A stretch of DNA of 64,000 nt from Patescibacteria group bacterium. Its GTDB lineage: Bacteria; Patescibacteriota; Patescibacteriia; Patescibacteriales; WJLG01. A model generated the notes under the pieces. The model did no database searches, was not told the DNA's origin, and saw only the letters and a program-made list of their open reading frames with translations. Numbering within the stretch: the first letter of the stretch is position 1; each line of letters starts with the position of its first letter. Shown here piece by piece: positions 4,321 to 59,474 of this stretch. The position numbers and the translations under genes are program-made. The stretch spans positions 66,501 through 130,500 of the forward strand of contig JAQTUZ010000003.1 of NCBI GenBank assembly GCA_028707065.1. Direction: 5' to 3'.

Positions 4321-4323
4321 TTT

Positions 4324-4425
4324 TGTCATTGCGAGGAGTCGACCGAAGGGAGACGACGAAGCAATCCCGCCGAGAATAGTATTCACGGGATTGTTTCGCT
4401 TCACTTCGTTCCGCTCGCAATGACA
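4324..4425. repeat. 102-bp imperfect palindrome with TGTCATTGCGAG...CTCGCAATGACA termini (TGTCAT-family element)
   Basis: The left arm tgtcattgcgaggagtcgaccgaaggg...gaagcaatcccg pairs with cgggattgtttcgcttc...gctcgcaatgaca. A sister copy lies inside tgt at 19624-19708. Confidence 0.8.
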
Positions 4426-4430
4426 GTATT

Positions 4431-4462
4431 AAAAAATCCGCGGCGCAGGCTGCGGATTTTTG
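4431..4462 (+). terminator. rho-independent terminator of clpB
   Basis: Stem aaaaatccgc / gcggattttt with a 10-nt loop, followed by a T-run. Confidence 0.7.
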
Positions 4463-4471
4463 TTAATCCAA

Positions 4472-4676
4472 ATTTAAAAGGCCACCGAGTCTTTTTTTAA
4501 AAGACTAAGTGGCCTGGCGTGGCTCATGCCGAAACGTTCTTCGACATCAGGGATTTGTACCCCGAAATTATGATAAAACTACACAGCTAATGTCCCGAAC
4601 CACTGAATTGGGCGCCTAAGAGGCTATTTATTTACCGCTTTCGGCACCGGGGATTCGTACCCCGAAAAAACGTACT
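4472..4676 (-). ncRNA. candidate orphan small RNA (about 205 nt), class unknown
   Basis: It lies in a 560-bp ORF-free gap between convergent genes. A minus-strand promoter sits at 4683-4710. A minus-specific terminator hairpin ggccacttagtctt/gactcggtggcc plus UUUUAAAUUU sits at 4470-4514. The body holds two tandem copies of TTCGGGGTAC(G/A)AATCCC(C/T)G hairpins with T-loop-like heptaloops. Confidence 0.4.
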
Positions 4677-4682
4677 AATTAA

Positions 4683-4710
4683 AGTTTACCAAAATTAATT
4701 ATTTTGTCAA
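4683..4710 (-). promoter_or_regulatory. promoter of the candidate sRNA (TTGACA-16-TGgTAAACT, extended -10)
   Basis: Reverse complement of 4705-4710 is TTGACA. Reverse complement of 4683-4691 is TGGTAAACT. Confidence 0.45.
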
Positions 4711-4777
4711 TAATATATTAAAAAACTGCCAATGATAGCAGTTCTATATTGAAAAAATATTTAAATTTAATTTTACT

Positions 4778-4810
4778 ACAACTAAGTACCTAATCAACTA
4801 ATTAACTAAT
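4778..4810. repeat. half-copy of the TTAGTTAATTAGTT palindrome family (family B)
   Basis: acaactaagtacctaatcaactaattaactaat matches the right arms of the copies at 10879-10906, 26226-26251, 28375-28418 and 34625-34650. Confidence 0.6.
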
Positions 4811-4830
4811 AGCATCTTTCAAATCATTTT

Positions 4831-4881
4831 AACACACCCCGTCCCGCCGAGGCGGCGGTCCACCCCTCTCGAGAGGGGAAT
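4831..4881. repeat. GC-rich palindromic element, family A, intergenic copy
   Basis: aacacaccccgtcccgccgaggcggcggtccacccctctcgagaggggaat is nearly the reverse complement of 59369-59419. It ends 3 nt from the histidine kinase stop codon. Confidence 0.85.
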
Positions 4882-4884
4882 TTT

Positions 4885-6015
4885 TCATCTCCAGATCGGC
4901 ACCGTAAAGCTGAACATCGAGCCCTTTCCAACTTCGGATTTTTCCAGTTTCAATTCGCCGCCATTGGCTTCCACGATTTTTTTGGCGATATAAAGTCCCA
5001 GTCCGGAACCGGACGGGCGTTCGTGCACCGCGCGCTTGCCGCGGACGAATTTTTCAAATAATTTTCCCTGATCTTCGAAATCGATGCCGCAGCCGCTGTC
5101 TTGAATATAAATTTTTAAAAACTCGTTGCCGATCAATCCGAAAGTGATCGCCACCGAGCCGGAATTGGTATAGGAAATGGCATTTTCCAATAAATTGCTG
5201 GCCACTTGGGTAATTTGTTTAGGGTCGCTTTTAATCCTGGGAATGTCAAAATTCTTTTCAACTTCCACCTTCAATCCCCGCTCTTTAACTACCGGCGAAT
5301 TATTATTGGCATTATCCACCAACTTGCCGATGATTTCTTCCAAATTTGTTTCCCGCAAATCCAATTTCACTCCTTCGCCCTCAAAGGAAAAAGCTTTCCA
5401 AAAATCAGTGAAAATTTCCTCCATCCTTTTGACGCCTTCATCGACGAAGCTCAAGCCTTTTTCCAAAGAAAACGCGCCGGACTTGATCATAAAAATGGAA
5501 TTCTTAATGATCGATACCGGCGTATTGAGCTGATGATTGACCACGCGCAAAAATTCATTCTTGACTTCCAGCAGCTTATTGAGATTGGTGTTTTTTTCTT
5601 CCAGTTCGGCGGCTTTTTTCTTGATGTCCTCGGTTTGTTCTTTGACTCGCTCTTCAAGTTTTTCGGTCAATTCCTCGAGAGCCTGGCTGGCTTTTCTTTG
5701 GGCAAAATTAGCTTTAATGATCCGGTCCGTGCTTTTATTCAAGACATAACCATAAACGATCACAAAAGTAAAAACACAAATGATCACTAACGCCGTAATC
5801 TTTCTTTCAGTTAGAAAAAAGAGGATGAGGAAAATACCAATCAAGGCTAAGCTGATAATTTGATATTGTAAAAAAAGACACTTGCGAAATTCTAATTCGC
5901 AATATTGACAGCGGCTATATGGCGAATAATTAAGGGTTTTGGCTAACCAGCAATTTTTATTGATATACCCGGGTCCGCCTATTTTTTCTCTTTGAATTTT
6001 TTTATCTTTTTTCAT
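4885..6015 (-). CDS. sensor histidine kinase with N-terminal Cys4 motif
   Basis: 376 aa. H-box LRVVNHQLNTPVSII, N-box NLLENAISYT, G-boxes DSGCGI and GSGLGLYIAKKIVEANGG, one TM region, a coiled coil, and an N-terminal C-x13-C-x2-C-x6-C motif. Confidence 0.88.
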   Translation of the reverse strand: MKKDKKIQREKIGGPGYINKNCWLAKTLNYSPYSRCQYCELEFRKCLFLQYQIISLALIGIFLILFFLTERKITALVIICVFTFVIVYGYVLNKSTDRIIKANFAQRKASQALEELTEKLEERVKEQTEDIKKKAAELEEKNTNLNKLLEVKNEFLRVVNHQLNTPVSIIKNSIFMIKSGAFSLEKGLSFVDEGVKRMEEIFTDFWKAFSFEGEGVKLDLRETNLEEIIGKLVDNANNNSPVVKERGLKVEVEKNFDIPRIKSDPKQITQVASNLLENAISYTNSGSVAITFGLIGNEFLKIYIQDSGCGIDFEDQGKLFEKFVRGKRAVHERPSGSGLGLYIAKKIVEANGGELKLEKSEVGKGSMFSFTVPIWR

Positions 6016-6477: not shown

Positions 6478-6638
6478 GGGACTGTCGCTGAATGCTCTTT
6501 CGAGCATAAATTTACAAAATTCGAGCCAAATTTGTTTTAAAATTTTTTTGGTGATATGGTTTATCAGCTAAAAAATTTTAAAACAAATTTGCCGAATTTT
6601 GGAGATTTAGGCCGAATACAGCATTCAGTGGCAGTCCC
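6478..6638. repeat. 161-bp imperfect palindrome
   Basis: The left arm gggactgtcgctgaatgct...caaatttgttttaaaatttttt is about 80 percent identical to the reverse complement of aaaaaattttaaaacaaatttg...agcattcagtggcagtccc. The right arm overlaps the last codons of sufS. Confidence 0.85.
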
Positions 6639-9835: not shown

Positions 9836-9851
9836 AAACGAATTTCGTAAT

Positions 9852-9954
9852 ATAATCCGAACCTACAAAATATCCGAATACAACGAACATTAGGACGAAC
9901 TCATGTTCGGTTCGTAGGGTTCGTAGTATTTGTGTATTTCGTAGGTTCGGATTA
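9852..9954. repeat. AT-rich palindrome of the CGAATAC/TACGAA family (family C)
   Basis: ataatccgaacctacaaaatatccgaatacaacgaacat pairs with atgttcggttcgtagggttcgtagtatttgtgtatttcgtaggttcggattat. The left arm is nearly identical to 48197-48236. Confidence 0.85.
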
Positions 9955-9959
9955 TTTAT

Positions 9960-10754
9960 TTACAAACTATACCGAACGAATTTCGTCACTTTCACGTTAC
10001 CTAAAACCTGCTCAACCTTTTTCTTGTCATCCTTGATATATTCCTGCTTGACCAGGCAAACCGCTTCGTAAAATTTATTGATCTTGCCGGCAAGAATTTT
10101 TTCCATCACTGCCGCCGGTTTCTTTTCTTTGGCTAAAGCTTCGCCTTCGATCTCTTTTTCCTTGTCGACGTCGGCTTGCGGCACTTCGGCAGGCTCGATA
10201 TATTTCGGATTGGCCGCGGCGACTTGCATGGCGATATCCACGGCCAAATCTTGTTTGCCGGCCGCATCTAAGGCAACCAGCACGCCGATCTTTCCGCCCA
10301 TATGCGAATAGCCGGCCACGGTCGCGCCCGAAATGATATTAAAATTCTTAATAACTAACTTTTCTCCGATCGTTCCGGACAGCGCATCAAGATCTTCTTT
10401 AACAGTTCCTTTTCGCAGTTTCAAGGCAAACAAGGCGTCCATATCGGCGGGTTTAGAACAAATAATCAAGTCCAGAACGGCTTTGGCAAACGCCTGGAAT
10501 TTTTCATTGCGCGCCACAAAATCTGTTTCGGCGTTAACCTCGACGATGTAACCTTCGTTTCCCTCTTCATTGACTGCCAATTGAATGCAGCCCTCTTTAG
10601 CTTCGCGGCCTTCGCGCTTGGCTGCTTTGGCAATCCCCTTCTTTCTCAAAAATTCCAAAGCTTTTTCCAAATCTTCGCCGGCTTCATCCAAAGCTTTTTT
10701 GCAATCCATCATGCCGGCTCCGCTTCTTTCACGTAATTGTTTGATGAGTTCCAT
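9960..10754 (-). CDS. tsf: translation elongation factor Ts
   Basis: 264 aa. MELIKQLRERSGAGMMDCKKALDEAGEDLEKALEFLRKKG (UBA-like N-terminus). Located downstream of rpsB as in most bacteria. Confidence 0.95.
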   Translation of the reverse strand: MELIKQLRERSGAGMMDCKKALDEAGEDLEKALEFLRKKGIAKAAKREGREAKEGCIQLAVNEEGNEGYIVEVNAETDFVARNEKFQAFAKAVLDLIICSKPADMDALFALKLRKGTVKEDLDALSGTIGEKLVIKNFNIISGATVAGYSHMGGKIGVLVALDAAGKQDLAVDIAMQVAAANPKYIEPAEVPQADVDKEKEIEGEALAKEKKPAAVMEKILAGKINKFYEAVCLVKQEYIKDDKKKVEQVLGNVKVTKFVRYSL

Positions 10755-10756
10755 TT

Positions 10757-10906
10757 TAGTTGATTGGTTAATCAGTTAATTAGTTGTGGTGACAAACAAG
10801 TTTTTGCAGACATTCAGCATCTCGCTGCTTAAATATCCGCAAAACGCGCCACCAGCCGAGGAATTAATTTACTTAAAAACTAATTCACCAATTAACTAAT
10901 TGACTA
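10757..10906. repeat. family B palindrome (TTAGTTAATTAGTT arms) filling the rpsB-tsf gap
   Basis: Arms tagttgattggttaatcagttaattagttgtgg and actaattcaccaattaactaattgacta. It starts 3 nt after the tsf start codon and ends 3 nt before the rpsB stop. Confidence 0.85.
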
Positions 10907-10908
10907 TT

Positions 10909-11613
10909 TTATTTTGAAGTTTTAATTTCTTGCTTTGCTTGAAGAAGATTTTCTTTGATGCAATCCATGATCAGTTTGACGGTTTTGGACGCATCGTCGT
11001 TTCCCGGAATGACATAATTCACCAGATCGGGATTAGAGTTCGTGTCGCAGATCGCGACGATTGGAATATTTTTAACCCTGGCCTCGCTCAGGGCAGTTTT
11101 TTCTTTCTTGATGTCCCAGATAAATAGCGCGTCGGGCAACTTGTTCAGATTGGTCAAACCGCCGACTTTCAATTCCAGACGCTTGATCTCCTTATCAAAA
11201 TCCGAACGCTCCTTTTTGGTATAGCGGTCTAGTTTTCCCAAAGCTTTTTCTTCCTGCAATCCTTTATACTTATTGATCATTTTCCGGAAGATCGGAAAAT
11301 TGGTCAGAACTCCGCCCGCCCATTTTTCCGAAATGTAGGGCATGCCCACAGCTTCGGCGGTCGCGCGCAAATCTTTTTTCACCTGGTTCTTGGTTCCGAC
11401 AAAAAGAATCGTCTTCGATTCCTTGACCAGGTTTTCCATAAATTCCAAAGCGGTTCCCAGCATTTTTTGGCTCTTGGCCAAATCAATGATGTAAACTCCT
11501 TTGCGTTCCGTAAAAATATACGGTTTCATCTTCGGGTGCCATTTGCTGGCTGAGTGCCCAAAGTGCATGCCCGCTTCGAGCATGGCTTCGATTGTTGGCA
11601 ATTTTGTGGCCAT
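10909..11613 (-). CDS. rpsB: 30S ribosomal protein S2
   Basis: 234 aa. LEAGMHFGHSASKWHPKMKPYIF...GVYIIDL, the canonical S2 N-terminus. Confidence 0.97.
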   Translation of the reverse strand: MATKLPTIEAMLEAGMHFGHSASKWHPKMKPYIFTERKGVYIIDLAKSQKMLGTALEFMENLVKESKTILFVGTKNQVKKDLRATAEAVGMPYISEKWAGGVLTNFPIFRKMINKYKGLQEEKALGKLDRYTKKERSDFDKEIKRLELKVGGLTNLNKLPDALFIWDIKKEKTALSEARVKNIPIVAICDTNSNPDLVNYVIPGNDDASKTVKLIMDCIKENLLQAKQEIKTSK

Positions 11614-11614
11614 A

Positions 11615-11692
11615 GTTTTTTTACCCCGTCCGGTCCGTAGACCGGCGGTGGTCCTTTTTTACCCCGTCCCGCAAAGCGGGCGGGGGTTCCTC
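11615..11692. repeat. two tandem GC-rich hairpin units (TTTTTTACCCCGTCC...) abutting the rpsB start codon
   Basis: tttttttaccccgtccggtccgtagaccggcggtggtcc followed by ttttttaccccgtcccgcaaagcgggcgggggttcc. Related to family A cores. Confidence 0.75.
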
Positions 11693-11926
11693 TATCCTAA
11701 CGATTTTACTTATTTCGGCTAAAAATAAGCAAGGTTTCCCTTAAGCATTTAGGATATGAGAGATTTATGAATAAATACATTATCGGCGCTCGCTCGGGAA
11801 TGATCTCACCAGAGGCGGATCATTTCGCTCGCTTGCTTGATAAACAAAACGGAAACGCCATAAATATGGCTTTTCCTTAACATTTAGCAGTTTACTACGG
11901 ATTTTAGTCAATGTCAAACATTGTCC

Positions 11927-12727: not shown

Positions 12728-12753
12728 CTTTTTTACTTTTTACTTCTAACTTC

Positions 12754-13890
12754 TTACTTGATTATTCCTCCTCCCAACAGCTCATTCTTTTTATAAAATA
12801 CCACGCTCTGGCCCGGGGTGATCGCACGCTGCGGCTGTCTGAATTTAACAACCAACAATCCCCTGTCGCCCTTAGTTATGGTGCAAAGAACTTCGGGATG
12901 ATGATAGCGGATCACCGCCGAACATTTAAAAGGAAGCTTGGGGGCAAGACCAGAGATCCAATTAACTTTTTCTGCTAATAAATATTCACCCGACAAGGCC
13001 GGATCATCCGGATCATTAGTTACATACAAAGTGTTGGTCTTAAAATCGCGGCCGGTCACATAATACGGGCCCTTACCGCCGATCTCCACGCCCTTGCGCT
13101 GACCGATAGTATAAAGCGGCAAACCCTGATGTCCGCCGACGATCTTGCCAAAGGTGTCGACAATTTTACCCTTCTTAAGCTGCAGATATTTTTTTAAATA
13201 ATCATTGTGGTCGCCGGACAAGAAGCAAACGTCCTGGCTTTCGGTTTTCAAATTGGGTAATTTTGCCCTGGCCGCCGCCGCCTTGACCTTTTCTTTAACC
13301 AGATCGCCCATCGGAAAAATAACATGCTTTAATTGCTCTTGGGTCAAATTATAAAGAAAATAAGTCTGATCTTTGGACAAATCTTTGGCGCGATAAATCT
13401 TGTACGTAGGAACGCGAGATTTTGCGTTCGAATTTCCGGGAACGCAAGATTTTGCGTTCCTACGAGATTTAACATTACGAAGTTTTACATAGTGCCCGGT
13501 CGCTAAATAATCGCAACCCAGGGCGCGCGCTTTTTTCAAAAGTTCGCCAAATTTAATGAGTTGATTGCACTTGACGCAAGGATTGGGAGTAATCCCCCGC
13601 TCATATGCTTTTAAAAAATATTCTTTAACATCATGATTAAATCGGCGCTTCACGTCAACCGGATAAAATTTGATGCCGATCTTCTGGCAGACTGCCCTGG
13701 CCGCCGCCTCGTCGCAGCAGCCGCGCTCAATCCCCAAGCGCATAAAAACGCCCAAGCAATCAAAGCCCTGGTCTTTCAAAATCTTGGCAGTTGTTGACGA
13801 GTCAACGCCGCCGCTCATTGCGACGGCCACACGCCGATTTGCGATTTTCGATTTGCGATTTTCGATTTGATTCATATTATTATTTGTCAT
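12754..13890 (-). CDS. mnmA: tRNA 2-thiouridine(34) synthase MnmA (start uncertain)
   Basis: 378 aa. PP-loop VAVAMSGGVDSS, NPCVKCN, ATGHY and KDQTYFL. The annotated ATG lies inside a repeat terminus (TGTCAT), so the true start may be the downstream MNQ or further in. Confidence 0.92.
   Translation of the reverse strand: MTNNNMNQIENRKSKIANRRVAVAMSGGVDSSTTAKILKDQGFDCLGVFMRLGIERGCCDEAAARAVCQKIGIKFYPVDVKRRFNHDVKEYFLKAYERGITPNPCVKCNQLIKFGELLKKARALGCDYLATGHYVKLRNVKSRRNAKSCVPGNSNAKSRVPTYKIYRAKDLSKDQTYFLYNLTQEQLKHVIFPMGDLVKEKVKAAAARAKLPNLKTESQDVCFLSGDHNDYLKKYLQLKKGKIVDTFGKIVGGHQGLPLYTIGQRKGVEIGGKGPYYVTGRDFKTNTLYVTNDPDDPALSGEYLLAEKVNWISGLAPKLPFKCSAVIRYHHPEVLCTITKGDRGLLVVKFRQPQRAITPGQSVVFYKKNELLGGGIIK
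13406..13463. repeat. twin 20-nt hairpins (GAACGC[G/A]AGATTTTGCGTTC x2) in frame inside mnmA
   Basis: gtaggaacgcgagattttgcgttcgaatttccgggaacgcaagattttgcgttcctac encodes RNAKSCVPGNSNAKSRVP between the conserved GHY and KDQ motifs. The spacing is about 19 aa longer than in the E. coli MnmA sequence as I recall it. Confidence 0.75.
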
Positions 13891-14060
13891 CCTGAGCGCC
13901 TCGCGAAGGATCTATTTTGCAAGAACTCTGAATCTTACTGAATAAGATTTCTTTGCAAAAAATCAACTATAGTATTTCTAAATTTTTATCTTCATTGTTC
14001 AACTTCCCGAAAAATAGATCCTTCGTCGTCAGCCGAGGCGGCTTTCTCCTCAGGATGACA
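13885..14060. mobile_element. MITE-like element with TGTCATCCTGAG...GAAGGATCTATTTT terminal inverted repeats (176 bp)
   Basis: The left arm 13885-13918 is tgtcatcctgagcgcctcgcgaaggatctatttt. The right arm 14011-14060 is aaaatagatccttcgtcgtcagccgaggcggctttctcctcaggatgaca. The core is AT-rich. A second copy lies at 53324-53525. No ORF, so non-autonomous if mobile. Confidence 0.65.
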
Positions 14061-15350
14061 AAAATCGGCGAAAATTTCCAAATATTCGCGAGCTGTTTTC
14101 TTCCAGCTGAAATCTTTTGCACGTTCCAGGCCGCGGGCGGAATATGATCCTCTCAATTTTTCATCTTGCATTAATATTTGCAGAGCCTTGGCGATTGAAT
14201 TTTCATCGTGCGGATCGACGAGCAAAGCCGCGTCGCCGGTCACTTCGGGTAAAGATGAAACTGCGGAAGTGATCACTGGAGTTCCCGAGGCCATTGCTTC
14301 CAAAACCGGCAAGCCAAAACCTTCATAAAAAGAAGGGTAAGCGAATATTTCCGCCAAATTATACAGCGCGGCACGCTCGTCTTTTTTGATATAGCCGATA
14401 ATGTTTATTCTGGCTTTATTTTTCGCCTTATCAATGGCCTTAAAAATTTCCTTGTTTTTCCAGCCGCCCGAGCCGGCTAAAACCAAATGCCACTCCCCCA
14501 TTCCGGGCAAATCGGCCACCGCATCAAAAGCGCCGATCAAGCCGGCTAAATTTTTGCGCGGCTCGAAAGTCCCGATGTTTAAAATGAATTTTTCCGGCAA
14601 GCCATATTTATTTTTTACGCTTGCCAATTCAAGATCATTTTGCCCCGTCGCAGTCTCCGCCGCGGGACTGCGACGCAACGGGCGAAATTCCGCGCCCACG
14701 CCCGCGTAAATCATTTTTATTTTATCAGCTGGCACGGAAAAATATCTGATAATATCTTGCCTGGTGTTTTCAGAAATGGCCACGATAATATCAGCCCGCT
14801 CGATCAATTTCCTGACGCCCAAAAATTTATGCCAAAAATTCTTCCGCGCGGAAAAAAATTCAGGATAAGAAATAAAGGATAAATCAGGAACCGTTAAAAC
14901 CACCCGGCAATTCCGGGAAAAATTGGCAAAATTAAAATGCGGCTGCCAAAAAACATCCACGCCGCCCTGCGGAACCACCCCCAAACCCCTCCTTATAAAG
15001 GAGGGGGGCTGACCACCCCTACCCCCTCCTTTGAAAGGAGGGGAATTTTTTGCGGCAATGGCATCTAACTTCGGCCAATGAAAAATTTTCTGTAGAAAAT
15101 AATTAAAAATTTTATTGGGATAATGAGTGGCGGCAATTTTAACATTATCCGAGTTCTGAAATCCCTGCCTTGCCGGCAGGCAGGCGAGTTCTGAAATCCG
15201 ATTTGAAATATCGCGGCCGGAATTATAATACAAAACATATTCGTTCTGCCGGTCTTGGCGCAAAATTTCGGTCAACAAATCCAGCGTATACCAGGATACG
15301 CCCGAATATTCCTTGTCCATCAATGGCCTGATATCAATGCCGATTTTCAT
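13992..15350 (-). CDS. glycosyltransferase family 1 (GT4-type)
   Basis: 452 aa. C-terminal EGFGLPVLEAMASGTPVITS motif. The last 23 aa or so are encoded by the MITE-like right arm. Confidence 0.85.
   Translation of the reverse strand: MKIGIDIRPLMDKEYSGVSWYTLDLLTEILRQDRQNEYVLYYNSGRDISNRISELACLPARQGFQNSDNVKIAATHYPNKIFNYFLQKIFHWPKLDAIAAKNSPPFKGGGRGGQPPSFIRRGLGVVPQGGVDVFWQPHFNFANFSRNCRVVLTVPDLSFISYPEFFSARKNFWHKFLGVRKLIERADIIVAISENTRQDIIRYFSVPADKIKMIYAGVGAEFRPLRRSPAAETATGQNDLELASVKNKYGLPEKFILNIGTFEPRKNLAGLIGAFDAVADLPGMGEWHLVLAGSGGWKNKEIFKAIDKAKNKARINIIGYIKKDERAALYNLAEIFAYPSFYEGFGLPVLEAMASGTPVITSAVSSLPEVTGDAALLVDPHDENSIAKALQILMQDEKLRGSYSARGLERAKDFSWKKTAREYLEIFADFCHPEEKAASADDEGSIFREVEQ
14977..15047. 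repeat. two CCCCTCC-loop-GGAGGGG hairpins in frame inside the GT4 gene
   Basis: cccctccttataaaggagggg and cccctcctttgaaaggagggg encode NSPPFKGGGRGGQPPSFIRRGLGVV. A related copy lies at 63839-63920. Confidence 0.75.
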
Positions 15351-16989: not shown

Positions 16990-17054
16990 GAAATTAGAAA
17001 TTAGAAATTAGAAATTTGGAACTTTTTAATTTCCAATTTCAAATTTCCAATTTC
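16990..17054. repeat. GAAATTAGAAATT...AATTTCCAATTTC palindrome (family D), copy 1
   Basis: gaaattagaaattagaaattagaaatttggaactttttaatttccaatttcaaatttccaatttc fills the 69-nt gap between the stop at 17059 and the start at 16989. It is nearly identical to 42876-42937. Confidence 0.85.
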
Positions 17055-18474: not shown

Positions 18475-18477
18475 GGT

Positions 18478-18573
18478 TATTAGTTAATTAGTTAATTGGT
18501 TAATTAGTTTGCAATTAAACAAGCTTTTGCAAATCAATTAGTAAACTAATTAACTAATTCACTAATTAACCAA
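18478..18573. repeat. family B palindrome
   Basis: ttattagttaattagttaattggttaattagtttgc...gtaaactaattaactaattcactaattaacc lies between the start codon at 18474 and the rnpB 3' end. Confidence 0.85.
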
Positions 18574-18585
18574 CAATCTAAATTC

Positions 18586-19031
18586 CAGTAATCTCAGGGC
18601 AAGCTATAAGCCGGATTCTGTCTGACCTCGCACCGAAGTGCAGGGTGATACAGCCATTAATCTGGTCGGGCTGTTGCCAGCCGACTCAAGCGAGCCACGT
18701 TCCTTCAAATCTTGCGATTTGAGTTTGCTCTTGCTTCAGATGGGGTTTACCACGCATTCCTGTCGCCAGGAAGCGAATCGGGTAGCCGATATTGATTAGG
18801 ATATCCTCATAATCAACATCTTCACCCCGAAACTTTTCACGTTTTACCAATGCGCCTCGCGGAGCACCGGCTAGTATTGTCTCTGTGGCACTTTCCGTGG
18901 AATTACTCCCCGTGGACGTTATCCACCATCATTTTTTGTTCCGCAAAACGCGGAGCAAGAAGTCCGGACTTTCCTCCCCTCTCTGGCAAAAACCAAAAAA
19001 GAGCGGCTGTCCGCTTACCCTGATATTACTG
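18586..19031 (-). ncRNA. rnpB: RNase P RNA (bacterial type A)
   Basis: The minus strand contains GAGGAAAGTCCGGAC (reverse complement of 18961-18976) and ACAGAATCCGGCTTA (reverse complement of 18607-18621). The ends CAGTAATATCAGGGTAAGC and GCTTGCCCTGAGATTACTG pair as a 19-bp P1. Confidence 0.9.
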
Positions 19032-19381: not shown

Positions 19382-19416
19382 AAAATGGACTGAATCGTTT
19401 CAGCCCATTTTTTATT
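19382..19416. terminator. bidirectional terminator hairpin between the micro-gene and tgt
   Basis: aaatggactgaa-tcgt-ttcagcccattt with T-runs on both strands. Confidence 0.65.
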
Positions 19417-26076: not shown

Positions 26077-26150
26077 ATGGTTTATCTATGCAACTATACT
26101 ATATCACAAAAAATATTATTTTTGAAATTTGAGTTTGAGTAATAATTTAT

Positions 26151-26251
26151 AGTTGATTGGTTAATTAGTTGATTAGTTGTGTTTCAAAATAATTATCAAA
26201 TAACATCGAAACCAGATGCTATAAAACTAATTAACCAATTAACTAATTAAC
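26151..26251. repeat. family B palindrome
   Basis: agttgattggttaattagttgattagttgtg...aaaactaattaaccaattaactaattaac. The right arm abuts the stop codon at 26252. Confidence 0.85.
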
Positions 26252-28250: not shown

Positions 28251-28418
28251 GTTTGGTTAATTGGTTGATTAGTTAATTAGTTGTTGGACAAATTAGCTAA
28301 TCGACTCAAAACAAGAATCGGCTTAAAAATAATTCAATTTTTTTATAAAATAATCTTGATAACACTACAACTAATTAACTAATTAACCAATTAACTAATC
28401 AACTAATTACCTTCAATA
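28251..28418. repeat. family B palindrome (largest copy)
   Basis: gtttggttaattggttgattagttaattagttgttgg...acaactaattaactaattaaccaattaactaatcaactaatta. The left arm begins 2 nt from the start codon at 28249. The right arm supplies the last codon and the TAG stop of the DUF4012 gene. Confidence 0.9.
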
Positions 28419-31084: not shown

Positions 31085-31092
31085 TTTTTATT

Positions 31093-31221
31093 AAATCCAA
31101 AACATAAAATCCTAAATCCAAAACAAATTAAAAAAATTAAAATCTAAAATTATAAAATTTTTAATCTTTGATATTTAAATTTTAGATTTGTTTTGAATTT
31201 TGTGCTTAGGGTTTTGGATTT
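31093..31221. repeat. 129-bp AT-rich palindrome (AAATCCAAAAC...GTTTTGGATTT)
   Basis: aaatccaaaacataaaatcctaaatccaaaacaaat pairs with atttgttttgaattttgtgcttagggttttggattt. Inner pair aatctaaaatt/aattttagatt. It begins 9 nt from the start codon at 31084. Confidence 0.8.
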
Positions 31222-31254
31222 CTAAAAATTCAAGAAACATATCTGCTTAGTAGA

Positions 31255-33639: not shown

Positions 33640-33644
33640 AAAAA

Positions 33645-33830
33645 TATAACGCGAATACTACAAATTATACGCGAATACAGCGAACCATTTTTAATTCCCC
33701 TCTTGCTTGCCCCGCAAAGCGAAGCGATGCGTGGGGGAGGGGTGGCCCGCCCCGGGCGGGACGGGGTGTGTTATTAGTTTCGCAGAGTTCGTGGTATTAG
33801 CGTAAAATTCGTTGTATTCGTGTTATATAA
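33645..33830. repeat. composite element: family C arms enclosing a family A GC-rich core (33694-33772)
   Basis: tataacgcgaatactacaaattatacgcgaatacagcgaacc...[attcccctcttgc...gacggggtgtgtt]...agtttcgcagagttcgtggtattagcgtaaaattcgttgtattcgtgttatata. Same architecture as 59322-59474. Confidence 0.85.
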
Positions 33831-33852
33831 ACAAGGTTGATATTTTTAAAAA

Positions 33853-33881
33853 CCTCGCCGCAAATTGGGCGAGGATTTTTT
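33853..33881 (+). terminator. rho-independent terminator
   Basis: cctcgcc-gcaaattg-ggcgagg followed by atttttt. Confidence 0.7.
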
Positions 33882-33894
33882 ATTTTTAAAATGC

Positions 33895-33983
33895 AATACT
33901 AATAAATACGAATACATACTAATATGACGAATAATTTTTTAGCACGCATTCGTCATATTAGTATGTATTCGCAGATTAGTATT
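33895..33983. repeat. AT-rich palindrome (AATACTAAT...ATTAGTATT)
   Basis: aatactaataaatacgaatacatactaatatgacgaat pairs with attcgtcatattagtatgtattcgcagattagtatt. The right end overlaps the stop codon at 33982. Confidence 0.85.
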
Positions 33984-34554: not shown

Positions 34555-34558
34555 TTTT

Positions 34559-34650
34559 TAGTTGATTAGTTGATTGGTTAATTAGTTGTATAGCATATTT
34601 ATTTCTCTAAAATAAAAACATTACAACTAATTAACTAATCAACTAATTTA
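34559..34650. repeat. family B palindrome
   Basis: tagttgattagttgattggttaattagttgta...ttacaactaattaactaatcaactaattta. It begins 5 nt from the start codon at 34554. Confidence 0.85.
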
Positions 34651-34663
34651 CTATTATTATACC

Positions 34664-34700
34664 ACAAAAAAACGGGGTTGCCTTTGGCTACAGCAACCCC
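34664..34700 (-). terminator. rho-independent terminator ending the typA transcript
   Basis: ggggttgc-tgtagccaaag-gcaacccc followed on the minus strand by GTTTTTTTG. Confidence 0.7.
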
Positions 34701-34704
34701 TTAA

Positions 34705-34824
34705 GTGCAAACAGCTCCTGTCTCTCCCAGTTAACCCCAATCGCGCCTTAACCGCCAACGGGAGAAGGCGACCATCCGGTCGGGCCAGAGACTCAGACCG
34801 AGTTATGCTTGCACCACAACATCG
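34705..34824 (-). other. about 120-nt long imperfect hairpin in the typA 3' UTR (candidate structured RNA)
   Basis: The ends GTGCAAGCATAACTC and GAGCTGTTTGCAC pair, as do the inner GTCTCT/AGAGAC. It lies between the typA stop (34853) and the terminator. No class identified. Confidence 0.3.
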
Positions 34825-34852
34825 GGTTTATCACCTGACGTTTTTGTATGAT

Positions 34853-36672: not shown

Positions 36673-36792
36673 ATATAATGCGAACCTACGAATTTTACGC
36701 GAATACCGCAAACTATTTATCGAATAAATTCTAGTAATTCGTTAAATCTATTCGTGGTATTCGCGAACAATTCATGGTATTCGTATTATATA
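36673..36792. repeat. family C palindrome
   Basis: atataatgcgaacctacgaattttacgcgaataccgc...attcgtggtattcgcgaacaattcatggtattcgtattatat. It begins 15 nt from the typA start codon. Confidence 0.8.
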
Positions 36793-41120: not shown

Positions 41121-41239
41121 AAATCAATTATGAATTATTAATTATAAATTTATAATAAAAGCACCTGAAAATTGGCGCTAAAAAAATATTAAATCATTTG
41201 CGTCAGCCTGTCAATTTATAATTAATAATTTATAATTTA

Positions 41240-42871
41240 TTATCCCACTATTTTCCCCCCGAAAGTTTTCAAGAGATCAGACATCATATCATTCCCCTTC
41301 TCATTTTCCGGCGGCAGTTCATCAGCCGGAACTTCGAGCTCGATATCATTTTCCGGCGCAGCAACTTTATTGCCCGCTTCAGCAACTTCCATATTTTCAT
41401 CGATCACCGCTTCAATAATTAATTGTGTGCCGTAAACTTCGCGCAGCACATTCTGCACGATCTCTTTCATCTTGGCTTCATTGATGCGGTCTTTATGGAA
41501 CTTGTATTTAAAGGCCAGACAAAGCTTATTACCGTGGAGATCCCGCGGCTGGCAAAGATGCAGGATGAACGACAGGGAATGATTGTATTTTTTTATCTTG
41601 GCCAAGACTTCGCTCCAGCGGGACATGATCTTTTCCTGATCAGGAACCGCGCCGCCCGAAAATTTAATCGGCTCTCCAGAATCAATTTTTTTTTCATTTT
41701 CAGGACCGGCGCTGGCCGTCCGACTTTTCGCCGCTCCTTCGACAGCCGCGCTAACGGCCGCCTTTGCCGGTGATACTTTTTCCAGGCACAATTCAGCGAT
41801 TGCCAATTCTACCGGCAATTGGATGATAAAGCTGTTTTTCATCTCCGCTTTCGCCGCAATCATTTTTTCCAAGATCGCGATCAAATATCCGATCTCTAAA
41901 TTTTTCTTCAGATCATTGATCTTAATTTCAAAACTCTCGCCGATATCAAGGCCAAGGCGTTCGCCGAGGCTTGGATTGATCTTGGACAATAAAATTTTCC
42001 GCAAAATTTCCACGAAGTCCCCGACGAACTTTTCCGGATCAACGCCGTCGTCGATGAATTTATTGATCAAAGCGATGGCGCCGGAGGCATCCTTCTTGAT
42101 TAAAAATTCCAACAATTTGATAATTTCGGCAATGTCCGATCGGGGTATCACCAAATCCGCTTCGGCGCGGGTGATCTCTTTGCCCGAGATCGAAACCAAT
42201 TGGCCCAAAAGGCTTTCGGCATCGCGCATATGGCCCTCGGCCTGGCGGGCGATGGCTTCCAAGATTTCACGATCCGCCTTGATCCCCTCCTGCTTAATGA
42301 TATAAGATAGTTTTTTAACCGTATCCTCGATGCTGATGCGGCGGAAATCAAAGCGTTCGCAGCGCGAGATGATCGTGGCCGGAACCTTATGGATTTCCGT
42401 CGTGCAGAGAATAAAAATTACGTGCGCCGGCGGCTCTTCGATCAATTTTAACAGCGCGTTAAAGGCCGAGATGGAAAGCATATGCACTTCGTCGATGATA
42501 AAAACTTTATATTTATATTTGCTTGGCGTAACGCGGGCGGAAGCGATGATATTTTCCCGCACATTATCCACGCCGGTATGCGAAGCCGCGTCGATCTCCA
42601 CGATATCCAGACTGCGGCCGGCTATAATTTCCAAACAGGACGAACATTTATCGCAAGGCTCGAACTCCCCTTCTTTGCGATTTAGACAATTCACCGCTTT
42701 TGCCATCAAGCGGGCAAAAGTCGTCTTGCCGACGGCTCTAGGACCGCAAAAAAGATAGGCATGGGCGATCTTGCCCGTGCCGATCTCGTTTTGCAGAGTA
42801 ATTTTGATATGATTCTGCCCCACCGCTTCCTTAAAAGTCTGGGGACGATATTTTCTATACAGCGTTGCCAT
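41240..42871 (-). CDS. dnaX: DNA polymerase III subunit gamma/tau
   Basis: 543 aa. YRPQTF, GPRAVGKTT Walker A, Zn module CDKCSSC, DEVHML, and the SRC motif (IISRCERF). Confidence 0.93.
   Translation of the reverse strand: MATLYRKYRPQTFKEAVGQNHIKITLQNEIGTGKIAHAYLFCGPRAVGKTTFARLMAKAVNCLNRKEGEFEPCDKCSSCLEIIAGRSLDIVEIDAASHTGVDNVRENIIASARVTPSKYKYKVFIIDEVHMLSISAFNALLKLIEEPPAHVIFILCTTEIHKVPATIISRCERFDFRRISIEDTVKKLSYIIKQEGIKADREILEAIARQAEGHMRDAESLLGQLVSISGKEITRAEADLVIPRSDIAEIIKLLEFLIKKDASGAIALINKFIDDGVDPEKFVGDFVEILRKILLSKINPSLGERLGLDIGESFEIKINDLKKNLEIGYLIAILEKMIAAKAEMKNSFIIQLPVELAIAELCLEKVSPAKAAVSAAVEGAAKSRTASAGPENEKKIDSGEPIKFSGGAVPDQEKIMSRWSEVLAKIKKYNHSLSFILHLCQPRDLHGNKLCLAFKYKFHKDRINEAKMKEIVQNVLREVYGTQLIIEAVIDENMEVAEAGNKVAAPENDIELEVPADELPPENEKGNDMMSDLLKTFGGKIVG
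41686..41694 (-). promoter_or_regulatory. A9 run (A AAA AAA heptamer in the zero frame) in dnaX: candidate recoding/slippage site
   Basis: Codons 393-396 are GAA AAA AAA ATT. The -1 frame reads AAT TGA immediately after the run. Confidence 0.45.
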
Positions 42872-42875
42872 AAGG

Positions 42876-42937
42876 GAAATTAGAAATTAGAAATTAGAAA
42901 TTTGGAAACTAATTTCCAATTTCAAATTTCCAATTTC
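42876..42937. repeat. family D palindrome, copy 2
   Basis: gaaattagaaattagaaattagaaatttggaaactaatttccaatttcaaatttccaatttc. It begins 5 nt from the dnaX start codon. Confidence 0.85.
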
Positions 42938-47583: not shown

Positions 47584-47667
47584 ATATACAAATCATGGAG
47601 CAAAGAACAAAGAACACAAATATCGAAAATAAACACTTACAAAGTTATTTGCTCCATGCTCTTTGCT

Positions 47668-48196: not shown

Positions 48197-48319
48197 TATA
48201 ATCCGAACCTACGAAATACCCGAATACAACGAACATTTTCATCCGAAAATTTCTTATTAATCTTGTATTCGTTTCGCAGCCGTTTGTAGTATTCGGATTT
48301 TTCGTGGGTTCGGATTATT
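48197..48319. repeat. family C palindrome
   Basis: ataatccgaacctacgaaatacccgaatacaacgaacatt...gtattcgtttcgcagccgtttgtagtattcggatttttcgtgggttcggattat. The track ORF 48196-48654 is an artefact of this repeat. Confidence 0.85.
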
Positions 48320-53323: not shown

Positions 53324-53525
53324 TGTCATCCTGCCTGCCCGCCTTCTTGTCCGCCTCGGGCGGAGGGAGGGAGCGCCGTGCGAAGGATCTATTTTCCGAT
53401 AAATCTTTAAAATGTTATAAAGAATTAGAACGATGATATTGGATTAACTTTATCGATAAAAAATTTTACCTCGATAATTTCTGCTTTACACAAAATAGAT
53501 CCCTCGTCAGGGACTCGGGATGACA
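53324..53525. mobile_element. MITE-like element, second copy (202 bp)
   Basis: The left arm is tgtcatcctgcctgcccgcc...gtgcgaaggatctatttt. The right arm is aaaatagatccctcgtcagggactcgggatgaca. The core is AT-rich, with the same termini as 13885-14060. Confidence 0.65.
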
Positions 53526-57437: not shown

Positions 57438-59321
57438 TTATTCATTTTTATCGCGCTTTGGCAAAATTGTCAAGGGTTTTTTGATAATTTTCACGGTTGA
57501 CGTCGCGACTGCGGAAAAATTTTCCAATTTGTACAAAGTAAAAATATCATCGGTCGATTTTATTTTCTGCAAAACCAAACCAGCTTGTTTTAATTTGCCA
57601 TCATTCAAATATTTAAAATCCTTCTCCGGAAAAGTAAAATTGAAATAATAAACCGGGATATATTTGGCTAATTTTTGATAAATAATTAACATGGCCGGAT
57701 CGGTAAGATTATTAACAACGACCTTGCGCTCGGGGAAAAATATCTTATCATGATAGCGGGTGATGATCACGGCCGACGGTTCGGTAAGCCTGAGCACCTG
57801 GTCATATTCCGATTTCAAAACTTGGTTATTGGAATCGACATAGAGCAGGCCCTCTTTGGAACCGCTGACCAAAAAATTGGCGGAAAAGAAAAAAATAAAA
57901 ATTATGATGACCGCCTGCGTGGCGCCGATGCTAAATGTCCGGGACGGCCATTGGAGCAGAAAAAAATTCTTAAACTTATTGGAACTGATCTTAACCGCGA
58001 CTTCACTATTTTCAGTATCGCGCGCAAAGATCGCCCAGGACAAACGAGAGATAAAAAAAGCCGCGAACGGCATCGCCCCTAAATAGATTGGCAGCCAATA
58101 ACGGGTGTAAGAATTGCCGATAGTGATTTCGTTAAGATTGGGATTATCATTGAATACCCAGCTGCCGTAATATAAGACCAAAATCGCGCTGGCAATAAAG
58201 TAAGCGAAGAAATACGCCCAATATTTTTTCTTCCATTTCCAAACCCGGGTCATGAACAGGATCAGTCCCAGAAAAGCCGGCCAAAAGAGCAAGGGAAACA
58301 TTTTCGGAAAATAATTTTTAAAATTCTGCCCGGCCTGATTATAATTCAAGCCGAAATAAAAAACAGTATTTTTGATTTTATTCAACGGTTCAAGAATGTA
58401 GGAAAATTGTCCCTTGACGACGGTCTTGGTCAAAACAACGCCCTCGGCCGCGACCGTGGTTATTGAGCGATTTATCTCCACGTAGCCGCCGTTGCTATAG
58501 CCGCCGTAGAGGATTTCGTTCCAAAAAAGCACCGGCACGAAAGGCAAGGCAACGAAACAAACAATGATGATCAATTTCAATATCCCGATCTTTTTTAAAT
58601 TGAACAGCCAAAGGACAATAAGCGCCGGTAGCAGCCAAATGGCCTCGGAAGTTCTGGTGATCAGGGCGCCGCCGACGAACAATCCGCCTAAAGCGGCCAG
58701 GAATAAATTTAACCAATCCATCTGCCAAAACCGCCAAGAAAAAAATTTATTTTTTCTCGGCGCGCGCGTCGCGGCTAAAACAATAAAATACAGGCTGATG
58801 ACCAATAAAGAAACAAATAAAACATTATGAAACAGGCTGTGCACCGAATAAAAATAAAATACCGGAAAACTTAAAAGTAAAAGCGAGCTTAGGAAGGCCA
58901 CCCGCGGCGTAAAAATCTTCTTGATCAAAAGATAATAAAAGAAAAAAGCCAGCGCCGCGAAAAACGGGGTCAAGAATGGGATGACTTTGACTGAAATTAA
59001 CTTGGCAATCGTACCGTAGATCAGAATGACGCCCAAAAAACTCACGGGTTTGAGCAGGCCATTGTCGCTGCGGAAGCTTCTCGGCTGCATGATCTCAGAA
59101 ACGAACGGATTATATTTTTCGTAAATAGTCAGCTGGCCGGTTTGGGCGTAAAGTTTGGCAAAAATATAATTGGCTGTTTCATCAGGCGAACCCCATTTGA
59201 CAAAACCATCGCGCTGCGTAAAAGCGATAAAACCGCAAGCGGCCGCAAAAAATACTGCTGCCAAGAGAACAACGCAGATTTCCCGCCAAAATCTTCTAAT
59301 AAAACTTATTATTTTGGTCAT
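57438..59321 (-). CDS. GT39/ArnT-like polytopic membrane glycosyltransferase (627 aa)
   Basis: More than 10 TM segments. The first loop motif GSPDETANYIFAKLY resembles the DE-containing loop of the PMT/ArnT family. C-terminal soluble domain. Confidence 0.7.
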   Translation of the reverse strand: MTKIISFIRRFWREICVVLLAAVFFAAACGFIAFTQRDGFVKWGSPDETANYIFAKLYAQTGQLTIYEKYNPFVSEIMQPRSFRSDNGLLKPVSFLGVILIYGTIAKLISVKVIPFLTPFFAALAFFFYYLLIKKIFTPRVAFLSSLLLLSFPVFYFYSVHSLFHNVLFVSLLVISLYFIVLAATRAPRKNKFFSWRFWQMDWLNLFLAALGGLFVGGALITRTSEAIWLLPALIVLWLFNLKKIGILKLIIIVCFVALPFVPVLFWNEILYGGYSNGGYVEINRSITTVAAEGVVLTKTVVKGQFSYILEPLNKIKNTVFYFGLNYNQAGQNFKNYFPKMFPLLFWPAFLGLILFMTRVWKWKKKYWAYFFAYFIASAILVLYYGSWVFNDNPNLNEITIGNSYTRYWLPIYLGAMPFAAFFISRLSWAIFARDTENSEVAVKISSNKFKNFFLLQWPSRTFSIGATQAVIIIFIFFFSANFLVSGSKEGLLYVDSNNQVLKSEYDQVLRLTEPSAVIITRYHDKIFFPERKVVVNNLTDPAMLIIYQKLAKYIPVYYFNFTFPEKDFKYLNDGKLKQAGLVLQKIKSTDDIFTLYKLENFSAVATSTVKIIKKPLTILPKRDKNE

Positions 59322-59474
59322 ATAATACGAATACTACGAATTGTACGCGAATACTACAAACCATTGTTATTCCCCTCTCGAGAGGGGTGGCAGGCCGCCT
59401 CGGCCTGACGGGGTGTGTTATTCGATTCGTGGAGTTCGCGGTATTCGCGAATAATTCGTAGTATTCGCATTATA
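59322..59474. repeat. composite element: family C arms enclosing a family A core (59369-59419)
   Basis: tataatacgaatactacgaattgtacgcgaatactacaaacc...[attcccctctcgagaggggtggcaggccgcctcggcctgacggggtgtgtt]...attcgattcgtggagttcgcggtattcgcgaataattcgtagtattcgcattata. It abuts the start codon at 59321. Confidence 0.9.

Follow-up and report, generated by a model that had tools for sequence, protein, structure and literature searches.

What are the long palindromes that stand between the genes of a Patescibacteria group bacterium, and do they belong to the start codons that they so often adjoin? The question was raised by a stretch of 64,000 nt (assembly GCA_028707065.1, contig JAQTUZ010000003.1, positions 66,501 to 130,500 of the forward strand; hereafter the window), in which a preliminary description, made from the letters alone, had seen gaps between genes each filled by one long palindrome abutting the downstream start codon. 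The palindromes proved to be lineage-specific, dispersed families with arms built of tandem units. Copies were nested within one another, replaced one another at the same junctions, were present in some sister genomes and absent from others, and occurred in frame within genes. They are not canonical terminators. We lean towards reading them as several families of small non-coding repeats, similar to miniature transposable elements with inverted repeats (MITEs), repetitive extragenic palindromes (REPs) and Rickettsia palindromic elements (RPEs), that are mobile now or were so recently and that occupy the spacers of a compact genome.

Palindromic families and their turnover

Each of the 15 sites named in the preliminary description held a hairpin-forming inverted repeat (IR). 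An ungapped IR search of the window (score ≥16) returned 16 long IRs, where 30 block-wise dinucleotide shuffles gave 0.03 on average. Fourteen of the 16 were intergenic, with a density of 1.18 per kb versus 0.038 per kb in coding sequence. Sense-RNA folds of twelve elements gave z-scores of −3.9 to −9.9, and none of the 200 shuffles of each element folded as well. Arms were 20–46 nt long and 72–100% complementary, loops were 2–101 nt long, and the elements as a whole measured 57–185 nt and contained no open reading frame (ORF). AT-rich, repetitive arms and the origin of the window in a metagenome assembly would suit chance low-complexity sequence or an assembly artefact, but the excess of IRs over shuffles, the fold z-scores and the homologous elements at the same junctions of independently assembled genomes already refute this explanation, to which we give practically no weight.

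Thirteen genes had a palindrome within 17 nt of the start codon, in agreement with the at least 13 genes reported at 0–17 nt. The hairpin foot adjoined the starts of GT4 and GT39 directly (0 nt) and lay 1 nt from that of rpsB, 2 nt from those of tsf and a glycosylphosphotransferase (GPT), 3 nt from those of dnaX and a gene for a 665-aa protein, and 4 nt from that of a hydrolase-like gene (ydjM). Distances were 1–8 nt for DUF4012, about 8–15 nt for a VirD4-like gene, 14 nt for typA and 16 nt for PSP1; the mnmA ATG lay inside an arm. Two further genes had been placed at 35–75 nt and were found there, namely a giant protein (~75 nt) and a small membrane protein with a DUF4395 domain (35 nt). The upstream stop codon lay 0–6 nt beyond the other arm, or overlapped the element, at tsf, PSP1, GT4, the 665-aa protein, VirD4, DUF4395 and the giant-gene element, as had been seen before. 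As a general rule, the statement that each gap is filled by one long palindrome did not hold: only about 17 of the 39 gaps of ≥40 nt were so filled, and many of the remaining gaps carried ordinary terminators with a GC stem and a T-run. At rpsB the hairpins themselves were confirmed, but these were two short, GC-rich, REP-like hairpins and not one long palindrome. The gene names given earlier agreed with Pfam and with ortholog gene tables, except for GT39, which had no Pfam match at E ≤ 0.001.

Comparison of units and copies within the 64 kb upheld the count of at least six sequence families. The arms were tandem arrays of 7–9-nt units and not unique sequence. Family A had a period of 8, with (RATTRGTT)n in the sense 5′ arm and (AACYAATY)n in the 3′ arm; its arms were conserved and its loops, of about 25 to 90 nt, were unrelated between copies. 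Family C had a period of 7 with a GAAATTN unit, and its two copies were nearly identical. Period 7 was also found in the AT-rich or heptamer elements at 31086, 41122 and 47592. Family B was comprised of ~9-nt CGAA units between TAAT...ATTA ends, with sub-families whose copies are alike over the whole sequence. Family E combined an unpaired CCCCGTC head with a short GC palindrome, and family F was TTTGTCATCCTGAG...CTCAGGATGACAAA. In total, the 64 kb contained five copies of family A, five or six of B, two of C, at least four of E and two of F. The families are multi-copy, as MITEs are, and share with MITEs the terminal inverted repeats around a short non-coding core. The GC-rich imperfect palindrome of 20–40 bp with an unpaired head that marks REPs was found in family E only; families A, B and C did not have the form of CGTC- or GTAG-tagged REPs.

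Heptamer arrays without an inverted partner also stood on gene boundaries. One, (TAATTTA)n, lay before clpB (1634–1659); another, (ATAAATT)5 in the sense direction of the minus strand (56356–56389), filled the 31-nt gap to a start at 56354 that has no Shine-Dalgarno (SD) site. Overall, arrays of period 7 or 8 stopped 0–9 nt short of at least 10 SD-less starts, with differing unit sequences and mostly with an inverted partner. Further single-arm heptamer arrays were seen at the gene boundaries 12733–12759, 53562–53585, 62279–62308 and 62731–62762, the arrays including (GAAGTAA)n over the stop codons of mnmA and cysS.

Searches with RpsB and Tsf placed the genome in Candidatus Falkowbacteria, within the Patescibacteria or candidate phyla radiation (CPR). 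Two GTDB representatives, L001 (CAVVFV010000005) and L002 (DATJQC010000078), were syntenic with the window (RpsB identity 94–96%), and Tsf homologues led to the further sister genomes L161, L162/L163, L164 and L165; four Joint Genome Institute (JGI) contigs were compared by gene tables only. The data comprised the 64-kb window and neighbourhoods of ~20 kb in the relatives, in which most gene starts were set by a longest-ORF rule; the starts of rpsB, tsf, PSP1, GPT and GT4 were backed by conserved ortholog lengths or N-termini. The sister clade was star-like, with amino-acid identities of 0.81–0.91 and identities of 0.38–0.63 at four-fold degenerate sites. L162 and L163 differed by 16 substitutions and one indel across 17 kb, without concentration in hairpins. 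A metagenome scan for closer strains returned no Tsf match above 59% identity, and a look-up of proteins identical to the window's Tsf gave no match.

Presence/absence differences between sister genomes, which the preliminary description had suggested looking for, were found as family replacement and as differences in gap length at the same junctions. At the rpsB–tsf junction, the window and L162 held family A; L002, L161 and L164 shared a GTAnCAG heptamer family, and L001 and L165 had two other families. The tsf–PSP1 junction held family B or a B-like palindrome in the window, L162, L164 and L165, a AAATCCGAA family in L001 and L161, and the AGAGCAA family in L002. The GPT–GT4 junction occurred in five different states in close relatives, including one gap of 11 nt; the gap was 49–129 nt in others, and some of these longer gaps held palindromes of different families. 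Between the glycosyltransferase gene and mnmA the gap was −4 to 4 nt in four genomes and 72–166 nt elsewhere, with different palindromes in the long gaps of all three genomes with readable DNA. Filled and empty sites, as known for MITEs, were found in this way, but the exact junctions of the empty sites are not definable at nucleotide resolution.

Long IRs occurred commonly among the 39 closest sequences and hardly at all in loci of more distantly related Patescibacteria and Chloroflexi. Among co-directional gaps of 101–200 nt, a long IR was present in 32 of 93 in the ingroup and in 1 of 56 in the outgroup. The arm motifs of families A and B were confined to the closest relatives. The replacement and presence/absence differences among sister genomes point primarily to mobile repeats and secondarily to a possible regulatory role.

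Palindromes within genes were GC-richer than the long intercistronic families. In mnmA, a palindromic insert (13405..13473, minus strand; IR 13405–13464) added 19 residues in frame and was absent from four of four orthologues. A 452-aa GT4-family glycosyltransferase contained an in-frame palindromic insert of 28 residues (14967..15050, minus strand), at the site of which L162 has a different element, together with two smaller inserts and a C-terminal extension of 22 residues from a family F arm; the other four orthologues stop 16–22 residues earlier in the alignment. This family F palindrome (13885..14063, minus strand) encodes the last 22 codons and the stop of the glycosyltransferase in its 5′ arm and holds the mnmA ATG in its 3′ arm. 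The reuse of one intragenic site by different elements parallels the reuse of one intercistronic junction. In-frame palindromic inserts absent from orthologues are what RPEs produce, and the correspondence is one of behaviour only, without sequence homology. The inserts show that palindromes arrive at many kinds of site and persist only at those that tolerate them.

The positions of the palindromic or GC-rich in-frame inserts in mnmA and the glycosyltransferase, which are absent from orthologues, also include 15159–15188, 14643–14675 and 13995–14060. The tgt gene (19412–20584) contained a palindrome, TGTCATTGCGAG...CTCGCAATGACA (19624–19708), which encodes CHCEER... and was common to L001 and divergent in L161, and a separate GC-rich insert of 14 residues (ARLRPAGAGLRRGK, ~20350–20400) that was found in the window only.

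The individual elements and their surroundings

The window had a G+C content of ~44%, and almost every gene lay on the minus strand. At the gathering threshold, Rfam recognised RNase P RNA (18591–19022) and tRNA-Gln (40277–40348) and no other RNA family in the window. Permissive scans of three regions gave only meaningless microRNA or leader matches, and a known RNA family was rejected for the palindromes.

All five copies of family A were assigned to the minus strand. The copy at 10757..10906 (octamer arms; z = −5.95) follows the rpsB stop (10909) and precedes the tsf start (10754), and its orthologous copy in L162 has an identity of 0.81 versus 0.44 at four-fold sites. The copy at 18477..18576 (z = −8.49) separates the GPT start (18474) from the 3′ end of RNase P RNA (18591); its L001 ortholog is identical at 103 of 116 positions, and L002 carries another family at the site. 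The copy at 26150..26251 (z = −5.48) adjoins the 665-aa stop (26252) and lies upstream of the giant-protein start by ~75 nt, with a promoter-like site (26126–26098) between the copy and that start. The copy at 28253..28412, with 94% complementary arms, overlaps the DUF4012 stop (28403) and ends 3 nt from the 665-aa start (28249). The fifth copy, at 34558..34653 (z = −9.17), stands 4 nt upstream of the ydjM-like start (34554). Upstream of it are a structured stretch of ~200 nt, a canonical terminator and TGGTATAAT, by eye an extended −10. This strongly structured stretch (34655–34852, minus strand) ends in the terminator (GGGGTTGC...GCAACCCC followed by T7), has no ORF or Rfam match, and may be an undescribed small RNA.

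Family B was represented on the minus strand at 9852..9955 (z = −9.92), where it separates the tsf stop (9960) from the PSP1 start (9835) and has an orthologous copy in L162. Two copies lie in divergent gaps. One (36673..36792, minus strand; z = −7.59) is 14 nt upstream of the typA start; the other (48198..48318, without assigned strand) lies between a minus-strand gene (47668–48153), 44 nt from its start, and the plus-strand corA, and is a close paralogue of the PSP1 copy. The copy at 59321..59474 (minus strand) abuts the GT39 start (59321), has a canonical terminator upstream and a family E unit nested in its loop (~59372–59413). A further copy with nested family E (33644..33828, without assigned strand) lies 4 nt past the stop of the plus-strand gene 32668–33639 and has loop sequence in common with the GT39 copy. 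The same convergent gap (33640–33981) holds a perfect palindrome with 24-nt arms (CGAATACATACTAATATGACGAAT; 33909..33971, without assigned strand) 10 nt past the ydjM stop, and each of the two palindromes adjoins a stop.

Upstream of the typA copy, the minus strand carries a near-consensus promoter, TTGACT-17-TATAAT (36829–36897), followed ~24 nt on by a terminator-like hairpin with a T-run and then by the palindrome and typA; this arrangement may be a leader, an attenuator or a very short transcript. The longest ORF of corA (48304–49326, plus strand) begins at a GTG inside the family B palindrome and its Pfam match begins at residue 41. The real corA start is probably downstream of this GTG, a case of repeats distorting ORF calls.

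Family C was found twice on the minus strand. At 16990..17054 (z = −7.06) it joins the GPT stop (17059) to the GT4 start (16989) with arms of (GAAATTN)4 and (NAATTTC)4, period 7, that match at 100%; at 42875..42937 (z = −6.82) almost the same sequence lies 3 nt upstream of the dnaX start. An AT-rich palindrome with AAATCCA-type heptamer arms (31086..31228, minus strand; z = −5.19) is directly upstream of the DUF4012 start (31084). Another, with AATTATA/AATTTAT heptamer arms (41122..41241, minus strand), reaches from the dnaX stop (41240) to 29 nt before a LAGLIDADG-like ORF and contains a promoter-like and a terminator-like site in its loop. That ORF (40367–41092; Pfam E = 5.7e-9; TTG start) is downstream of the palindrome and directly upstream of tRNA-Gln. 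A hairpin with AGAGCAA/TTGTTCT heptamer arms (47592..47667, minus strand; z = −3.85) extends between a stop at 47668 and the start of the VirD4/TrwB-like gene (47583), and its unit family also occurs at junctions of L002. The element before DUF4395 (6478..6638, minus strand) is a composite of outer arms (6478–6523 and 6593–6638) around an inner palindrome (6527–6591); it overlaps the SufS/SufE stop and lies 35 nt upstream of the DUF4395 start.

Family E formed two tandem GC-rich hairpins (11615..11692, minus strand) between the conserved rpsB leader with its SD region and the rpsB ATG. The CCCCGTC tags of this pair are unpaired on the plus strand, and the pair is absent from L001 and L162. A single unit with the CCCCGTC tag and CCCCTCTCGAGAGGGG (4832..4886, without assigned strand) is 94.5% identical to a copy in L002 that sits elsewhere in the gene order. 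Overall, CCCCGTC was found directly 5′ of family E stems at 4837, 11624 and 11662 on the plus strand and, in the units nested in the family B loops, at 33766 and 59413 on the minus strand. The second copy of family F (53324..53525, minus strand) lies in the gap downstream of cysS.

The rpsB leader (11698–11904, minus strand) occurs in L002 and L162 too and is 86–88% identical to that of L001; it has a conserved stem (GGAAAAGCCAT...ATGGCGTTTCC) and matched no Rfam family. It may be an S2 autoregulatory leader of the clade. The 564-nt convergent gap after clpB (4321–4884) is a pile of repeats, with a GTCATTGCGAG-type palindrome (4324–4425), two GGGGTACGAATCCCC units that resemble a tRNA T-arm and also occur in L162 near 16375, a single family A arm (4779–4810) and the family E unit. 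Within an unannotated ORF (42974–44041), a 30-nt tandem duplication (CTCGTCCGCCGTAGCCTTAGCGAAGGCGGG twice) was seen at 43625–43683.

Expression, constraint and the competing explanations

The mapped positions confirmed the intercistronic location of the palindromes and showed that they are not tied to start codons: the same families abut stops and sit in convergent and divergent gaps. Across the 39 related sequences, placement was symmetric, with median distances of 15.5 nt from the upstream stop and 17.5 nt from the downstream start, and IR densities were 1.32 per kb in co-directional, 0.61 in divergent and 0.57 in convergent gaps. Placement specific to starts was not seen in these sequences and was rejected.

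Promoter and terminator scans, which report consensus matches only, found a promoter-like site and the conserved leader upstream of rpsB, a canonical terminator past PSP1, and no convincing promoter in the internal gaps of the rpsB–tsf–PSP1 operon, where the family A and B palindromes lie. These internal palindromes are presumably transcribed through, since there is no other way to express tsf. Transcription may be supposed for the palindromes in general, because most are in operons or between a promoter and the first codon. The ydjM and GT39 copies follow a canonical terminator and a −10-like box, and would form the whole 5′ untranslated region of their genes. No T-run was found behind the long palindromes, and the terminator scan flagged none of them; it did flag parts of family E units. 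With no U-tract and with real terminators elsewhere in the window, the palindromes were rejected as canonical terminators.

The start-proximal arm had been expected to pair almost up to the AUG if the hairpin forms, and partition-function folding agreed: the unpaired probability of positions −20..−4 was 0.22 in hairpin-preceded genes and 0.44 in others (p = 3e-4). The AUG window (−3..+12) was as open in the former as in the latter (0.49 versus 0.43), and tsf stands directly behind a hairpin of 150 nt. Genes that the preliminary description had named as lacking an SD site, or as having a strong AGGAGG, were as stated, but the contrast drawn between them was not significant. Among genes without a palindrome, 23 of 34 also lacked an SD site, and strong SD sites occurred in none of 13 hairpin genes versus seven of 34 others (one-sided p ~0.09, hand calculation). 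SD depletion was rejected as a signature of the palindromes.

As mobile repeats, the palindromes would be non-autonomous elements that colonise gene ends, the short gaps that separate co-transcribed genes and a small number of in-frame positions where an insert is tolerated. Each copy would fold in the transcript as a self-contained hairpin, looping the insert out and keeping the upstream stop and the downstream start a few nt apart at the foot of the stem. With the AUG single-stranded and positions −20..−4 paired, the downstream gene would have to start without SD contact, either through re-initiation or coupling from the ribosome whose termination takes place at the other foot, or because the AUG is captured directly. 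Loss of pairing would part stop and start or expose the mRNA, and retained copies may evolve slowly for this reason. Some copies may have been co-opted as hairpins that stabilise or process mRNA. A narrower proposal for these SD-poor CPR genomes, hairpin-bridged termination and re-initiation, has the ribosome pass the stem base from stop to AUG and makes the stems "addictive" spacers, hence their slow evolution; we regard it as rather improbable. A role of the palindromes as translation switches is not proven.

In seven orthologous pairs of elements, identity was 0.71–0.95 at paired and 0.52–0.82 at unpaired positions, versus 0.44–0.65 at four-fold sites of the flanking genes. Four-fold sites with A or T were even less conserved (0.33–0.39), and AT-biased mutation was rejected as the cause of the slow evolution. 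Retained copies look constrained: they would either evolve more slowly than neutral sequence or be younger than the species splits, through independent or lateral acquisition. The analysis of covariation, which the preliminary description had proposed, found ten compensatory pairs between orthologues and no strand-specific covariation; the remaining pairs were comprised of 350 unchanged, 26 changed to G.U, 16 changed to A.C and 43 changed to other mismatches.

Several observations weigh against recent or present mobility, or against the folded transcript that accompanies it in our account. Scans of 40 window proteins and the gene tables of the sister loci yielded no transposase domain, and neither the window nor those loci showed an autonomous element bearing these arms. 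Target-site duplications were not clear, and none was found at the ends of families A or C; family B was always flanked by TA...TA, but the TA is itself part of the palindrome and is indistinguishable from inverted repeat. The unrelated loops of family A are not explained by simple copy-and-paste. The tight gaps between the glycosyltransferase gene and mnmA may in part be an artefact of ORFs that run through the heptamer array by which the mnmA N-terminus is encoded in some genomes. Slow evolution is unexpected for junk and could instead reflect a primary host function. None of transcription, in-vivo folding or the initiation mode was observed; each is inferred. Changes that break pairs (59, i.e., 43 and 16) exceed those that keep them (36, i.e., 26 and 10), the difference between G.U and A.C changes amounts to no significant sense-strand G.U bias between orthologues, arm complementarity within a copy was no better than across paralogues, and fold energies had no consistent strand preference. 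Evidence for selection on pairing itself is weak, and selection at the level of the sense-strand RNA was rejected on the fold energies, the G.U and A.C counts and the paralogue arm complementarity.

If the palindromes were instead dedicated intercistronic translation devices, with SD-free re-initiation across the helix base as a bacterial analogue of ribosome shunting and with mobility and diversity secondary, the geometry at tsf, GT4 and the 665-aa gene (stop 0–6 nt from one foot, AUG 0–5 nt from the other) would be expected, as would the open AUG window beside a paired −20..−4 region, the lack of strong SD sites in all 13 hairpin genes and the evolution of retained copies more slowly than silent sites. 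The same holds for the hairpins that both internal junctions of the rpsB–tsf–PSP1 operon carry throughout the seven sister genomes, where the families differ, and for the eight of nine family A and C copies (seven in the window, one each in L001 and L162) that lie ≤4 nt from a start despite spare room. Such devices, however, would not stand beside stops only, in convergent or divergent gaps, or behind primary promoters without an upstream cistron, nor would they occur as GC-richer palindromes within coding sequence. Stop and start distances that are symmetric across the clade, the two thirds of hairpin-less genes that are SD-less as well, junctions reduced to a few nt in some sister genomes and the lack of strand-specific covariation count in the same direction, and we judge this explanation unlikely. 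In another account, the elements are sites of RNA processing, stability or attenuation, such as RNase III sites, 3′-end protectors, protective 5′ stem-loops or U-tract-less attenuators that set operon stoichiometry. The long, near-perfect stems (20–45 bp) within operons would suit it. Correia elements are bound or cleaved by RNase III (PMC2649163), and REPs have been proposed as mRNA stabilisers (PMC3733652). One element lies between RNase P RNA and an mRNA, three adjoin only a stop (26150–26251, 33644–33828 and 33909–33971), the ydjM and GT39 copies right behind a −10-like box would be the 5′ end of the transcript, and retained copies are conserved above the neutral level. A function in processing or attenuation is nevertheless poorly matched by the missing U-tract and by canonical terminators elsewhere, even in the same gap as a palindrome (GT39, ydjM); pairing has no sense-strand bias, conservation of the arm units across loci would not be needed, and in-frame intragenic copies are left unexplained. 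As a primary role it, too, appears unlikely.

The arms might also act as DNA, the 7–9-nt units binding a sequence-specific protein (perhaps a regulator or nucleoid protein, perhaps a recombinase or transposase that acts in trans) or forming cruciforms, with the RNA hairpin incidental. Arms that stay near the family consensus across loci while loops diverge, the lack of strand preference, single-arm arrays of like kind without an inverted partner and copies in divergent promoter regions would all suit a DNA-level role. At least six unrelated units in 64 kb, and more in every sister genome, would however call for a large number of matching proteins, neither a binding protein nor a transposase emerged as a candidate from the window and sister loci, and most copies lie within operons and not at promoters. 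We hold a DNA-level role to be distinctly improbable.

Significance and relation to known systems

CPR genomes are among the smallest and most streamlined, and dense, diverse repeat families are unexpected in them. If the palindromes are mobile repeats, about one third of the 100–200-nt operon spacers in this clade would be occupied by palindromic invaders, and the repeated hits by different families on the same junctions and codon positions would form a natural experiment on the insertions that an operon tolerates. Stop and start at the feet of a stem, an open AUG and a paired docking region would make the translation of SD-less cistrons testable. C-terminal extensions, donated start codons and in-frame peptides inflate or shift ORF calls, and such repeats should therefore be masked in CPR annotation.

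In function and form, the closest systems are the Correia elements (CREE) of Neisseria, which are MITEs, REPs and REPINs, and the RPEs. RPEs, reportedly described by Ogata et al. in 2000, are said to be selfish repeats of a reduced genome that stand in frame in genes as well as in intergenic sequence, the insert being tolerated as a surface peptide. The palindromes of the window are likewise palindromic repeats of a reduced genome and occur both in frame and between genes; unlike RPEs, they are mostly intercistronic, have arms of tandem units, form several families per genome and bear no sequence relation to RPEs. In phages, T7 early and late mRNAs have intercistronic RNase III hairpins, and the split ribosome-binding site of T4 gene 38 is bridged by a hairpin. 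The window shares with these the long intercistronic hairpin directly upstream of the next initiation region, and the pair of family E units that separates the rpsB SD region from the ATG recalls T4 gene 38, where a hairpin between SD and AUG is tolerated because folding restores the spacing. The T7 and T4 sites are evolved, single-copy regulatory sites with an SD, without repeat families or insertion polymorphism.

Heptamer repeats are also known in cyanobacteria as short tandemly repeated repetitive (STRR) sequences. The TAACTGA heptamers of Beggiatoaceae, cyanobacteria and Bacteroidetes lie a few nt upstream of starts, also in ribosomal-protein operons (MacGregor 2015, PMC4679880). The start-proximal arrays of 7–8-nt units without an SD, including the single-arm arrays at 1634–1659 and 56356–56389, strongly recall these; the family A arm at tsf contains TAACTGA, and the arm consensus is TAACTRAT-like. 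In Beggiatoa, 169 direct sets and one indirect set were reported (PMC4679880), unlike the mostly inverted, hairpin-forming pairs and several unit sequences of the window. Guide arrays of the tandem interspaced guide RNA (TIGR) or CRISPR type were rejected: the TIGR unit measures 36 nt and the period here is 7–9 nt, the hairpins stand singly at scattered sites, and the window proteins scanned included no Nop/Tas or Cas protein.

CREE bind integration host factor (IHF) and RNase III, are cleaved or protected by RNase III, and alter the expression of neighbouring genes (PMC2649163; reviewed in PMC10969869). Like Correia elements (CREE, also NEMIS), the palindromes are short (~100–160 bp), non-coding inverted-repeat elements in intergenic sequence near genes; they would be co-transcribed as long hairpins and have possible −10-like boxes at their ends, and the ends of family B (TA/TAAT...ATTA/TA) are compatible with the TA target of Correia elements, with a TA duplication that is not provable here. 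Unlike Correia elements, they form many unrelated families in place of one, have arrays of 7–9-nt units in place of a unique 26-bp terminal inverted repeat (TIR), and have no sequence similarity to them and no known IHF site or related transposase. REPs are found mostly between co-directional and convergent ORFs, with some inside genes (PMC3733652), much as the palindromes of the window are. Family E, with GC-rich palindromes of 25–35 nt behind an unpaired CCCCGTC head, present as single or tandem units or within other repeats, is like the CGTC-tagged REPs (Di Nocera et al. 2013, PMC3733652) and the REPINs that go with the REP-associated tyrosine transposase (RAYT; PMC3337134). The AT-rich families A, B and C are unlike REPs in their length of 60–185 nt, their arms of 20–45 nt and their lack of a GTAG or CGTC tag, and no RAYT (Y1) transposase gene was found in the window. 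Searches of the literature turned up no account of repeats like these in CPR or Patescibacteria. What is distinctive here is the combination of inverted tandem-unit hairpins, many unrelated families per genome, rapid turnover at fixed junctions and a streamlined CPR host.

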